Below, piece by piece: positions 9,301 through 41,142 of a DNA stretch of 64,000 nucleotides. The stretch is from Octopus sinensis (taxonomy: Eukaryota). Position numbers and translations under genes: made by a program. How positions within the stretch are numbered: position 1 is the first letter of the stretch; each line of letters starts with the position of its first letter. The DNA is taken from positions 163,556,001-163,620,000 of the forward strand of contig NC_042997.1 of the NCBI RefSeq assembly GCF_006345805.1, written 5' to 3'. A model generated the notes under the pieces. The model was not told the origin of the DNA, did no database searches, and saw nothing but the letters and a program-made list of their open reading frames with translations.

Positions 9301-12300
9301 TTGTGTGTGCTTTAAATTTCAGCAATATACTATTTCTTTCCTTTTCTCTGTCCTGAGATCAGAGGTATTCCAGCTGTGACTATCCTGCCTTTTTAGAGAG
9401 ATATAGGATTACATTATCTACATAATGTCTTTTTTTTGTTGTTTAAAAGAGAAGGATGTGATTTAAGGGAAATTTGGCTGTTATTTGTAGTTTGGTGAAC
9501 GACCATGTAGAGCTTCCCTAGTTGGTTCGTTAGCCTTTTTTTTTTAATTTACAAAAGGGTGCAAGCGGCTGATGGTTGAATCAACAGGTCGGACTTCCAG
9601 CGGTAGCAGGGGTGATGATTCTATCTCGTTACCAGTACTAAACTCTTACCGTGGAAAAAGCGCAGCCCACCTTGTTAGATGTAGACACAGATCCACGATG
9701 TATGCAGTGTAATTTTCAACAGAAGAACTGAAATCTATGAATTTTATTTCAAAATATTCTGAGACTAGCAAAATTACCAAAATTCAATATTATATTAACC
9801 GTCAATAATTATATTATATATTTTTTGTGTCGGTCATTAGACTGCGACCATGCTGGGGTACCGCCTTGGAGAATTTTTTAATCGAATGAATTGACCCCAT
9901 CACTTATTATTTTAAGCCCCGTACTTATTCTATCGATCTGTTTTGCCGAACTGTTAAATTACAGGTACGGAAACACATCAGCACCGGTTGTCAAGCGGTG
10001 GAAGGGGGAAACACTGACACAAAGACACGCACGCACACACAACGGGGTTCTTTCAGTTTCTGTCTACAAAATCTACTCACGAAGCTCTAGTCAGCCCGAG
10101 GCAATAGTAGACGACAATTGCCCAAGATATCACGCCTGTATTATTTAAAAATAATTTGCAGGAAGCTGCTTAAATTCCATCAAAGCCTTCAATCTAACAC
10201 ACCAACTAGGGAACCTCAACATGGTCATTCACCAAACTACAAATAACAGCCAAATTTCCCTCAAATTACATTCTTCTCTTTTAAACAAAGAAAGACTTTA
10301 TGTAGATAATGTAATCCTTGAGTAACAGTCAACTGGAATCAATTTAACTGACTATATTTTCCCTCTAAATTGTAAAGCATTATGCCAGTGTTAGAAATTA
10401 AATATTTATTATACTAGAAATATATCTAAGTTATTTAAAATTTTGTTTTAGAGTTAAAATTTTGCATTGATTTTGTATATAATTCTATATACTAGAAATG
10501 GGTAGATGATTGAAGGATTAGTTAAAAAAAATAATGGAAGAAAAAATCCACCCAAATCTGTGAGAGGCTGTACTCAGAGTCTATATAGCATAGATAAAAT
10601 GCCTTTCCATGGTTGCATGACCTGCTAAATTTTCTCAAATGACACTATCCAGAAATAAAAGTCGGGGCAGGATACCTTGGATAGTGTAGCACTAGATATA
10701 TAAAAGATGGGATGTTCATGGCTGAATAGCCTTTGATGATACATTTTCTTGTCAGGATGACATGGGCACCAAACAACGCTAATTGTAAAACAATGTCCAA
10801 TGATGACAGTGTCACTGAATAGGAAGAAACTTGTCTTTGAAACCTCACATATTTAGCAACAGGAACTTTCTCACCTATAATTGATTATTTGTGCAGGATT
10901 GGATTCAAATTGGTTATGTTTGTATTATTTTCACAGACATGTGAAATAACAATGTGTCTATTGCAGAGAAGTTGGAAAACTGTATTCAATACAATGTAAC
11001 AATAATGTTAAAAAAAAACTGTATTCAATACAATGTAAACAAATGTGGTAACATAAAAACAAAATCTATGTAACATGTGGAAGTCATTGCACATTCTTAG
11101 AATTTAATAGAATTTGGGAATGGACTATTGCTAAAAATGAATGAAATAAGATAAACTTTTGGAAGATGCATCTAAAAAAAAATTGTCAAGATAAGTATTG
11201 CTAATCTGTTTTCTTAGTAGAGCTGGTTTCTTCAGTATGAGAAAAAAAATTTGTTAAAAATAGAGAAAGCAACCAACAATACCAATGGTTAAACTGTCTC
11301 AGTAACCATTCTCTGGTGGCAAGCAGCAGCTTATTTCTGTTGGCTGGATTTCTTCACAGCAAATTGTACTTGCTTATGGATGAGTGCACTGTTGTTATTG
11401 TAAGAGATGTCAACAGGAATACTGGATGGTGTGAAATCAAAGGACAAAGACAGCTAGAAGCAGATGTCTCTGATATGCTAGTAGAAAAGAGACAGGATGT
11501 GACTCTTATTTATTTTATATTGTAATTAATGAACAATAATAGTTTTGCTTATGTATATTGAATGGGGCAATTACTAGTTCACTGCATTTCAGATGGTGAG
11601 AACAACAAAACAGTATCTTAAACTTGGTGCAAAACAAATATTGCAAAGGGCTTGGTTCATTTTGTTGTAGATGTTTACATCCTTCTCCAATAATTGTTTC
11701 AAACTTTGACACAAAGTCAGCAATTTTAAAGGGAGAAGCCAAGTTAATTACATTGACCCCAGCATTTGACTGGTACTTTATTTTATTGACCCTAAAAAGA
11801 TGAAAAAGGAAAGTCAACCTTGGTGAGATTCAAATTCAGAATGTAAAGAGTCAGAAGAAATGCCACTAAGCAATATGTCTGACATGCTAACGTTTCTGCC
11901 AGCTTGCTACCTTAATCCTTCTTCATAATAATCTGTGAATCTACAAGGCACTGGTCAATCTGAAGTATGTTAGAAGACATTTGCCTAAGCAATCAATGCT
12001 GTGTGTTGGTTAATGTAGTATTTCTCTTCATATCTCTTACAATTAAAAACATCTAGTATTTTTTTCTAATGAAATAATATACTATTTAAGAGGGATGATG
12101 AAACGACAAGCATGCTTTGTCTGTTTTAATAATTGCGGCTGAAATCTGTATTTGTTAGAGACGGCCTTGAGACTAGGTGGAGAATTTCTCTTAATGCTCA
12201 TACATAGTTTGTGAAAGGAAGAGTATCCAGTTATAAAAACCAAGCTGCAATCATATGAAGTGAAAGAGAACAAACATTACATTGGAAACGTTCCATTCTT

Positions 12301-20060: not shown

Positions 20061-20291
20061 ATTAGACAAAAACAGATAACAAAGCCACGGCTGTGAGGAG
20101 TTTTCAGGATATTTATAAGGAAAGAAATAGTCTTACAGCTGTTTCTGGGATATTATGGATATCTTTTCATCAGAGACGATGTGAGAAAAATAAATGGAAA
20201 AGGAGGAGATAGGGAAAATAGAGGGAAATAAGAGAATGGAAGTAGAAATAACATATAAAATATTGTAGTTGCAGTTCCATTATTGTCTAAT
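20061..20291 (-). mobile_element. Penelope-like terminal-repeat fragment in (TA)/(TTA) microsatellite
   Basis: Contains a hammerhead motif, has short inverted ends (ttagacaa ... ttgtctaa) and microsatellite flanks. Family assignment is an inference from this architecture. Confidence 0.6.
20130..20177 (-). ncRNA. Minimal type I hammerhead ribozyme motif, canonical C3-G8 core
   Basis: Minus strand gtct-CTGATGA-aaagatat-ccata-atatccca-GAAA-CAGCTG-TA-agac: helix I gtct/agac, helix II gatat/atatc with an eroded base, palindromic helix III, GUA cleavage triplet. Confidence 0.75.
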
Positions 20292-20739
20292 ATATATATG
20301 CAGGCCAATACAAGACCCACATTAAACTCCTAACTCGTATCACAATCGAACCAAGAGTTTAGTTATGGTCTGTCCTTAGCAATTAGCATTATCTGCCACT
20401 CTTTGAGTCTTCTAGATACCAATACACACGTACATGCACACACGCATGCACACATAATGTCAATGGTATCACCATTAGTACCTTGCTGCTAACATTCCTC
20501 TGGCTTCCCCAACTTGTGCACCCTCTCTCTTCAACCTTTCTCTGTCTTTATAGATGTTGCCTACCTACCTCCCTCTCCTCCATACACTCTTGCACTCCCC
20601 TCCATACTATTCTTCTTACCTGAGGTGCCACCTGGATACCTCATCACCAGTATCTATCTCTTTGGCAATACTACCAGTCCATTCTCTTTCACTCTCTCTC
20701 CTGAATGTGAGTAGCTGTGTAGCTCCTCTCATTGGCTAC

Positions 20740-20774
<35 letters not shown>

Positions 20775-21141
20775 AATGTGAATGAATATTGACATTAAAT
20801 AGCTTCACTTGTTACCACTTGAAATGGTGCTGTGATGTTTATATTCCTTGATAACATTATGACCAGTCAGTGTGTGCTTTTGAAGACCTGTGGAATAAAA
20901 ATATCCCATACTTAAAAAGCAGCTAAGAGTTGGCAACCAGGAATAGTATCTGGCTGTAAAATCCTGCTTCTATTAACTTTACTTCAACCCCATGGTTGAA
21001 CAAAAGTTAATATGAAAAACATGGATGTTAAATGCATGAACATGTATATATATACAAAAACAATTGCAGTGTGGGAGGTGTTTATAAACCATTTACAAAA
21101 CACACAAAAACTGTTAGATTCACTTCAACATTTAAATTTAA

Positions 21142-21192
21142 TTTGTCAAAATATTTTCGTCATTTTGAAACCACGACCTGTTCACTGACAAA
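21142..21192 (-). ncRNA. Minimal hammerhead motif with swapped G3-C8 core
   Basis: Minus strand tttgtca-GTGAACA-g-gtcgt-ggtttcaaa-atgac-GAAA-ATAT-TT-tgacaaa: 7-bp helix I, 5-bp helix II, palindromic 4-mer helix III. A more decayed mirror copy lies at 21212-21262 (+). Confidence 0.65.
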
Positions 21193-21277
21193 ATTCCATG
21201 CAGCATGGAATTTTGCCAGTGAACTGGTTACTGTTTCAAAACAATGAAAATATTTTAACAAATTAAATTTAAATGTT

Positions 21278-21682
21278 AGGAGTGGCTGTGTGATAAGTAG
21301 CTTGCTAACCAACCACATGGTTCCGGCTTCAGTCCCACTACGTGGCATCTTGGGCAAGTGTCTTCTGCTATAGCCCCGGGCCGACCAATGCCTTGTGAGT
21401 GGATTTGGTAGACGGAAACTGAAAGAAGCCTGTCGTATATATGTATATATATATGTATGTGTGTGTGTGTGTTTGTGTGTCTGTGTTTGTCCCCCTAGCA
21501 TTGCTTGACGACCGATGCTGGTGTGTTTACGTCCCCGTCACTTAGCGGTTCGGCAAAAGAGACCGATAGAATAAGTACTGGGCTTACAAAGAATAAGTCC
21601 CGGGGTTGATTTGCTCAACTAAAGGCGGTGCTCCAGCATGACCGCAGTCAAATGGCTGAAACAAGTAAAAGAGAAAGAGAGA
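21278..21682 (+). mobile_element. tRNA-derived SINE family B (CORE-like, internal TA/TG microsatellite)
   Basis: ggagtggctgtgtg...ggttccggcttcagtccc (A/B-box-like), cttgggcaagtgtcttc core, gaaacaagtaaaaga tail. Relatives at about 9830-10135(-), 12935-13230, 18680-19045, 42972-43250, 46400-46530, 53548-53900, 58155-58405(-) and 62480-62720. Confidence 0.9.
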
Positions 21683-21805
21683 AAGTGAATCTAATGGTTT
21701 TTGTGTGTGTTTTAAAATGGCTTATAAACACCTCCCATGCTGCAATTGTTTTTGTTTCAGCACACAATCTCAGATCAAGTCACTTGCTATGCAAGTACAT
21801 CTCTG

Positions 21806-21844
<39 letters not shown>

Positions 21845-21872
21845 AAAAAGGAGATGTGGAACATGAGTTGTG

Positions 21873-22098
21873 ATATATAAAAGAAAGGAAATGAAGAAAA
21901 TGCTGACAAAATAATTTAAGTAAGGGAGAGTGTATTTAATTAGGTGAAAGTTCTTTTTACCGGTTGCGCATTTGTTATGCTTAAAAAAATATCTTTTGAT
22001 AAGCATAACAAATGCGCAACCGGTAAAAAGAACTTTCACCTAATTAAATACACTCTCCCTTACTTAAATTATTTTGTCAGCATTTTCTTCATTTCCTT

Positions 22099-22110
<12 letters not shown>
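21873..22110. repeat. Perfect 111-bp inverted repeat with 16-nt spacer (probably Penelope-like)
   Basis: 21873-21983 is the exact reverse complement of 22000-22110. This explains the twin ORFs 21842-22039(-) and 21944-22132(+). It lies between (TA)n runs. Confidence 0.95.
21992..22031 (+). ncRNA. Hammerhead-like motif with U3-A8 core and GCAA in place of GAAA
   Basis: tctt-TTGATAA-gcat-aacaa-atgc-GCAA-CCGG-TA-aaaaga: helix II and palindromic helix III fit, helix I is weak, A13 is substituted. Confidence 0.45.
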
Positions 22111-41069: not shown

Positions 41070-41142
41070 TTCCCATGCCAGGAATCAAACCAGGGCTGCT
41101 TTGGTGAGAGCCAGGAATCCTAACCACTAGATCACATAGGGA
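41070..41142 (-). pseudogene. tRNA-Glu(CTC) pseudogene
   Basis: Minus strand TCCCTATGTGATCTAGTGGTTAGGATTCCTGGCTCTCACCAAAGCAGCCCTGGTTTGATTCCTGGCATGGGAA aligns with eukaryotic tRNA-Glu. The anticodon stem is broken (CCTGG/CAAAG), the B box is CpG-decayed (GGTTTGA), there is no CCA, and TTTTCTTTTT follows. Confidence 0.85.

Follow-up and report, generated by a model that had tools for sequence, protein, structure and literature searches.

The window analysed here is a 64-kb stretch of the Octopus sinensis genome (C1:163556001-163620000, in a source genome of 2.72 Gb and 13,516 contigs), in which a first-pass annotation had placed three hammerhead cores with different 3:8 pairs within 2 kb, each in a different repeat. 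The places and core letters of the three motifs were exact, with N3 at 20173 (−), 21185 (−) and 21996 (+), and the repeats were mutually unrelated, their families coming from three groups of Penelope-like elements (PLEs). The first repeat, family A (20062..20284, −), is the 5′-truncated 3′ end of an element assigned to the Hydra clade, with a TA/TTA tract at its end; it was placed by 91% identity to the copy at L003, by an alignment of 30 loci and by an endonuclease upstream in longer copies. It carries motif 1 (20130..20177, −), a C3-G8 minimal hammerhead with an A·A mismatch flanking helix II and a 6-nt palindrome, of which helix II has decayed in this copy. A TA tract follows at 20285..20425 (+), together with a stretch that is also seen 3′ of family A ends elsewhere (e.g. 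L002, L006, L013, L017 and L019) and that likely represents the PLE tail of a second copy, short and in inverted orientation.

Family B, a Nematis-like PLE, occupies two arms. The left arm (21054..21206, −) is a 3′ end in the short form without a tail and contains motif 2 (21142..21192, −), a G3-C8 minimal hammerhead with a 7-bp helix I, an extra G after A9, a 5-bp helix II, GAAA, an ATAT palindrome and UU. The 5′ part of the right arm (21198..21277, +) holds the motif a second time in decayed form (N3 at 21219, A9 changed) and is interrupted by a SINE-like repeat (21278..21682, +; repeat family D13); family B resumes at 21683 with the 3′ part of the arm (21683..21807, +), which includes an optional tail of ~55 nt and ends at (TA)17. 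Family C is likewise present as two arms. Its left arm with tail (21842..21992, −) is truncated inside the hammerhead core, and its right arm (21986..22104, +), the 3′ end of a young Neptune-type PLE with ORFs in L091 and L092, is 99% identical to 29 other loci, ends at (TA)14 and bears motif 3 (21989..22031, +), a hammerhead-like U3-A8 motif in which position 13 is C and helix I spans 2 bp. Neptune and Nematis are reportedly among the PLE clades of Arkhipova's 2006 work. Elsewhere in the window, an Rfam tRNA match just above the gathering score (41070-41141, −; 32.5 bits), with no ARAGORN call, is likely the head of a SINE, and a 100-nt inverted repeat (9434-9533 and 10194-10293; 90% complementary, 660 nt apart) is possibly MITE-like.

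The hammerhead architecture attributed to all three motifs was complete in motif 2, whereas helix I of motif 3 comprised only 2 bp and helix II of the window copy of motif 1 was damaged. A strict minimal-hammerhead descriptor (helix I of 7 bp, helix II of 5 bp, GAAA, 4-nt palindrome, UH) matched the window once, at motif 2, compared to no match in 20 shuffles. A relaxed descriptor, allowing G[A/C]AA and a helix I of 2 bp, gave two matches by adding motif 3, with a shuffle mean of 0.35 (7 matches in 20 shuffles), such that motif 3 is weak when taken alone. Both descriptors missed motif 1 because two G are lost at the base of helix II in the window copy. Searching the window against Rfam returned no hammerhead at E ≤ 5, and there was no PLE reading frame inside the 64 kb. 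Motifs 2 and 3 each lie within a head-to-head palindrome, with arms of 75 and 117 nt, respectively, and both palindromes are predicted to fold into extended hairpins (−92.5 and −173.2 kcal/mol) that contain no hammerhead. RNA read through them would thus probably stay uncut, and motifs 2 and 3 are likely inert as they stand in the window. In copies elsewhere in the genome, each motif lies 95–150 nt ahead of the 3′ end of its own family and ~0.9–1.9 kb downstream of a GIY-YIG endonuclease frame. Truncation at the 5′ end, inverted pairs joined head to head and a 3′ tail that may be missing were seen among the copies, as is typical of PLEs.

Family A comprised 1,973 first-look candidates, with copies 81–92% alike to the window copy. 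Its majority motif consists of a 4-bp helix I, C3-G8, A, a 7-bp helix II, A, GAAA, a 6-nt palindrome and UA, and C3-G8 was found in 49 of 55 distinct copies. Walking ~1.9 kb upstream of motif 1 led to a decayed endonuclease, the translations of which (L247-L259) have a CxCX5C linker, no CCHH (one cysteine lies inside GIY-YIG) and a CxxC before a conserved E; motif 1 or its UTR was located downstream on the same strand in 9 of the 20 loci found with this endonuclease. Passages of Craig et al. 2021 (PMC8557442), the source of the Hydra-clade definition, which includes RWK and DKT motifs in the RT, give the same CxCX5C linker, lack of CCHH, CxxC before the conserved E and (TA)n target for that clade, and by its linker, its lack of CCHH and its CxxC family A, known from its endonuclease alone, would belong there. 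Hammerheads in the portion of File S2 compared here resemble motif 1 in their C3-G8 core, mismatch on both sides of helix II and ACAG..CUGU helix III, and motif 1 is an ordinary, already published type. Relative to the Hydra-clade elements in those passages, family A has a longer UTR (~1.9 kb), and it differs from Hydra-1_Obim in hammerhead and linker, so that it is not that listed element. A different endonuclease, at L094, was rejected as the family A parent, as none of 30 loci of its family had motif 1 at their own 3′ end, and it represents a separate family, D.

The family B motif is abundant, with 1,226 exact 35-nt matches genome-wide and 6,255 exact 19-nt matches carrying C8 (control 0), and G3 was present in 97 of the first 100 of the latter listed. 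Among 100 distinct copies selected in part by their core, 95 had the G3-C8 pair, as did 23 of 27 copies picked via an anchor outside the core, with all core letters intact in 20 of the 27. Across the 100 distinct copies, the core showed no minor allele of at least 10%, stem variants gave G·U pairs, loop II and the flanks were variable, and no double compensatory change was seen within the family. Likewise, no letter at position 3 or 8 varied at or above 5% of contig depth in family B contigs of four public runs from three organisms. Motif 2 has U4 G5 A6, A9, G12 A13 A14, A15.1-U16.1 and H17, and in geometry it agrees with the minimal consensus in print, having a helix I of 7 bp, a single extra nucleotide, G10.1-C11.1, a helix II of 5 bp, GAAA, a 4-nt palindrome and UU, while the 3:8 pair is present as G3-C8 compared to C3-G8 in that consensus. 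The palindrome is all A-U and the cleavage triplet is UUU.

Most family B copies end ~24 nt ahead of the core. Because none of 60 copies seemed to extend, we considered whether family B might be a circular RNA or a non-autonomous element of 210 nt whose 5′ end is fixed; a non-LTR retrozyme made of non-coding head-to-tail tandem units was considered as well. Both ideas were rejected: direct head-to-tail tandems, which could supply a partner hammerhead, gave 0 junction matches, and an extended form leads to a coding parent. In this longer form (598 matches), a low-complexity UTR is followed within ~1 kb by a GIY-YIG frame (L264) that is part of a 722-aa RT-EN frame (L265). A Pfam search of the protein found no family; by eye it resembles printed Nematis sequences, with a short CX3CxxC linker and a similar endonuclease, and has DKS instead of DKG, so that "Nematis-like" denotes a by-eye match. 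Among metagenome contigs, 21 pattern matches to the protein were obtained, with no relative confirmed. One family B palindrome recurs with its flanks many times on the chromosome-scale contig C1 (L129-L131, L146-L149, L151, L152 and L157) and was therefore copied within a larger duplicated unit, and a 457-aa C2H2 zinc-finger frame lies beside a nest of family B palindromes at L098:7374-8744.

We also assessed sister families of B using a pattern in which the helix starts of B were kept and G3 and C8 were forbidden. This gave 96 matches, compared to 8 for the control, and a hand count of their 3:8 states yielded U·G in 50, C-G in 11, U-A in 8, A-U in 6 and no pair in 21. Twenty loci fetched from this list comprised one B copy and otherwise older families that mostly share helices I and II with B, and a tail related to that of family B was present in 4 of the 20. 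These older sisters (L283-L302) mostly carry U3·G8 and some C3-G8 or U3-A8, and several have a non-palindromic GGAC in helix III, from which tandem G·A pairs could arise upon dimerization. Since the helices are shared by sisters that carry C3-G8, U3-A8 or U3·G8, G3-C8 constitutes a double change relative to them in this limited, biased sample; an earlier idea that it arose by register shift of a family D-like motif was dropped once these closer sisters were found.

The first-pass annotation had read the three window motifs as showing Watson-Crick covariation between positions 3 and 8. That comparison is not in itself evidence, because the motifs come from different clades, and strict Watson-Crick pairing has not been kept throughout the B lineage, as U·G wobble is the commonest sister state. 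In an alignment of 12 sequences from B and its sisters, 90.6% of helix cells were paired, a value reached in 0 of 500 shuffles, and all 12 had a pair at 3:8 (C-G in 6, G-C in 2, U-A in 2, U-G in 2), with scores inflated because the sequences were hand-picked using a pattern in which both helices are partly fixed, and with G-C coming from one family. Pairs in helices I and II of motif 2 were kept in this small, biased alignment, with mostly one-sided changes.

Family C is young, with 99% identity among the 30 loci taken from 815 candidates. A near-full element (L092) consists of ORF1 (465 aa), an overlapping RT-EN frame, a 0.9-kb UTR, the motif, the tail and (TA)n, and the tail doubles as the ORF1 leader. 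Within L092:4677-8286, ORF1 is separate, has no Pfam match and overlaps the RT-EN frame, suggesting a frameshift. Pfam matches to L092 were obtained for RVT_1 (E = 3.6e-5) and GIY-YIG (E = 5.8e-4), neither reaching the curated cut-off. Sequences at L091 and L092 contain GxKF, DKG, a CX4CxxC linker and CCHH, with two cysteines inside GIY-YIG, and the sharing of GxKF, DKG, the linker and the two cysteines with the Neptune clade, as given in passages of PMC8557442, points to a Neptune-type PLE.

Motif 3 has U3-A8, a paired helix II, a 2-bp helix I and GCAA instead of GAAA in 30 of 30 distinct family C copies, and hence departs from the invariant G12-A13-A14 (A13C); a family C motif with GAAA exists at only one place genome-wide. 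A13 is generally regarded as essential in the hammerhead core. The sister families D and E have U3-A8 in 26 of 29 and 18 of 18 copies, respectively, with intact GAAA and a 3–4-bp helix I at the same position. Because family C combines A13C with a 2-bp helix I while its sisters retain GAAA, motif 3 is likely a decayed member of the known U3-A8 subtype, judging from sequence, and its element nonetheless still multiplied. Family D (L099-L128) is a very abundant young Neptune-type PLE, with 17,824 candidates, several open frames of 784 aa and an intact U3-A8 motif.

Searching for GIY-YIG gave further PLE families, and 11 of 12 family references parsed as minimal hammerheads, the exception being family H. 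Each of the 11 has its own helices and palindrome, and their 3:8 states were C-G in three, G-C in one, U-A in six and A-U in one, such that all four Watson-Crick pairs are present within one genome; pairing at 3:8 was Watson-Crick in every reference copy across the 12 families, a biased set found partly by eye. The A-U state is that of family G (L203:2067-2105; L223-L242), which is young (1,281 first-look candidates) and carries A3-U8 in 16 of 16 distinct copies, with a 6-bp helix I, a 2-bp helix II and a CCGG palindrome, 0.3 kb downstream of its endonuclease. These results bear out the expectation that several families with variant 3:8 pairs exist and that a CUGANGA search would miss them, e.g. 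the G3-C8 family B and the A3-U8 family G. Predicted dimers formed the palindromic helix III for families A, C, D and E, and not for B or G. Additional PLE hammerheads were observed at L197, L198, L199 and L216, with a 10.1-11.1 mismatch (C·A, U·U) and a helix II down to 2 bp.

The proposed targeting of microsatellites was evident for family A, in which 25 of 30 copies ended at (TA)n compared to 3 of 30 in the background, and for family C (30/30 vs. 6/30), and was weak for family B (9/30 vs. 2/30). Among 249 loci retrieved for a given family and totalling 853 kb, 28 contained a motif of another of the 12 families, or ~33 per Mb, which is a lower bound as to families, yet biased upward since the loci are insertion flanks. 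At this density, ~60 two-kb bins with three motifs are expected in the genome by chance, before any (TA)n targeting, so the 2-kb cluster calls for no special cause. PLE density together with (TA)n targeting would be expected to produce clusters of this size, and the cluster is an insertion hot spot rather than a system.

We consider it probable that the three motifs are hammerheads of three PLE families, represented here by 3′ ends that were truncated and lie in an AT-rich hot spot for insertion. On this reading, motifs 1 and 2 likely go back to functional ribozymes, whose cutting would be slow and dimeric and probably aided by the element's protein, and motif 3 is likely broken. In the source elements, two hammerheads would pair their palindromes into helix III and cut after N17. 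The ancestor of family B would have passed from C3-G8 to G3-C8 with both letters changed, helices I and II kept and a competent core retained, and this change of both 3:8 letters with the helices kept points to selection for the 3:8 pair in source elements. The source element of family C would have carried A13C, with the core lost, and its recent multiplication in that state suggests that insertion does not depend on cutting. As regards family B, the all-A-U palindrome, the UUU triplet, the missing helix III in the predicted dimer, the 0 matches to direct tandems, the frequency of U·G in sister families and a decay of position 8 at about the neutral rate in inserted copies count against the preferred reading. 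A broader reading, that octopus PLEs use all four Watson-Crick 3:8 pairs, with B an active natural G3-C8 hammerhead and G a natural A3-U8 hammerhead, neither described before, while a young sister jumps with a dead core, so that the series would tell selection for cleavage apart from a requirement for it in transposition, is put forward tentatively, as we judge it somewhat less probable than its opposite.

An alternative that we regard as unlikely, though it fares best among those considered, is that the family B motif is kept as a fold bound by PLE protein or marking the template rather than as a catalyst, with G3-C8 reached by drift through an unpaired state. Passages reporting low activity of metazoan minimal hammerheads and cleavage that is dispensable in vitro (PMC4209133; PMC11167929) are consistent with it, as are the multiplication of family C despite A13C and the frequency of U·G in B sister families. 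In family B, G3 with a letter other than C at position 8 gave 368 matches (G 42, U 41 and A 17 among the first 100 listed). The G3-G8 state makes up ~2.4% of copies, an excess of about 2.5-fold or more over the ~1% C-to-G background at other sites. However, this state recurs in all subfamilies, and 20 fetched G3-G8 copies were spread over all of them, so an ancestral intermediate subfamily is not supported. The other core letters and both helices of B are intact, and 3:8 is Watson-Crick in the partly eye-picked references of all 12 families, both of which count against this alternative.

A second alternative, that all three motifs cut, with the A13C and short helix I of motif 3 tolerated or else rescued by protein or a shifted helix I, appears distinctly improbable. 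The youth of family C and fixation of the motif in all 30 distinct copies would fit it, as would a helix II wholly unlike that of the sisters and yet paired, and there are precedents in the passages compared for a 2-bp helix I, in Drosophila Penelope (PMC4209133), and for core variants that cut weakly (PMC3088659). Against it, GAAA is present in all 56 motifs aligned in PMC4209133, none of which has C at position 13 as motif 3 does, and in all 10 other families parsed here. Finally, chance look-alikes in palindromic, DNA-transposon-like repeats, as the long palindromes of motifs 2 and 3, the empty Rfam search and the relaxed-descriptor background might suggest, can be given almost no credence and were rejected, since the centres of the palindromes vary, their tail is optional and they trace to RT and GIY-YIG frames, and the motif lies at the matching place in sister families. 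The hammerheads thus belong to RT/GIY-YIG PLEs and not to DNA transposons, and the upstream frames foreseen by the first-pass annotation were both present for C, were found as an RT-EN frame without a Pfam match for B, and comprised the endonuclease only for A.

The preferred reading, of slow dimeric ribozymes in source elements, bears on whether animal PLE hammerheads do anything, given poor cutting and the insertion of mutants in vitro. If it holds, the 3:8 swap with the rest of the core kept would be natural evidence of selection on the active fold, and the young A13C family C would serve as a natural negative control. Patterns restricted to CUGANGA or UUGANAA would then overlook thousands of motifs per genome.

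Compared to known systems, the octopus motifs share with PLE minimal hammerheads described in passages of Cervera and De la Pena 2014 (PMC4209133) a position in 3′ repeats, a short helix I, an extra nucleotide after A9, G10.1-C11.1 and a palindromic helix III; the minimal type I hammerheads of metazoan PLEs reported there cut weakly, as dimers. U3-A8 is already in print, both for PLEs, including Schistosoma Cercyon, which is of the same subtype as motif 3 (PMC4209133), and for other hammerheads (PMC3088659). The passage of Perreault et al. 2011 (PMC3088659) considered here names U3-A8 only among 3:8 variants, and it describes U3-A8 covariation, a 10.1-11.1 mismatch and a 2-bp helix II, as found here. 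The cores of the 56 motifs aligned in PMC4209133 are CUGA.GA, two UUGA.AA and one UUGAAGA, with no natural G3-C8 or A3-U8, and neither pair occurs in the portion of PMC8557442 File S2 compared or in passages of PMC3884650, PMC6155905, PMC6765202, PMC10085705, PMC13725137 and PMC13282606, a coverage that is incomplete and does not establish absence from print; Lunse et al. 2017 may hold such variants. Novelty rests on motif 2 and family G, while the clustering, U3-A8 and the link to PLEs are not new, and motif 2 is likely a new natural variant of the hammerhead and a putative self-cutting RNA. The closest counterpart is an engineered one. In the Poseidon PLE hammerhead of Anolis, according to passages of Frangieh et al. 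2024 (PMC11167929), cleavage depends on the PLE protein and dead mutants still insert in vitro, and either C3G or G8C kills cleavage, whereas having both changes (C3G/G8C) partly restores it. The swapped pair is the same as that of family B, being a laboratory mutant in Anolis and natural in thousands of copies in the octopus.
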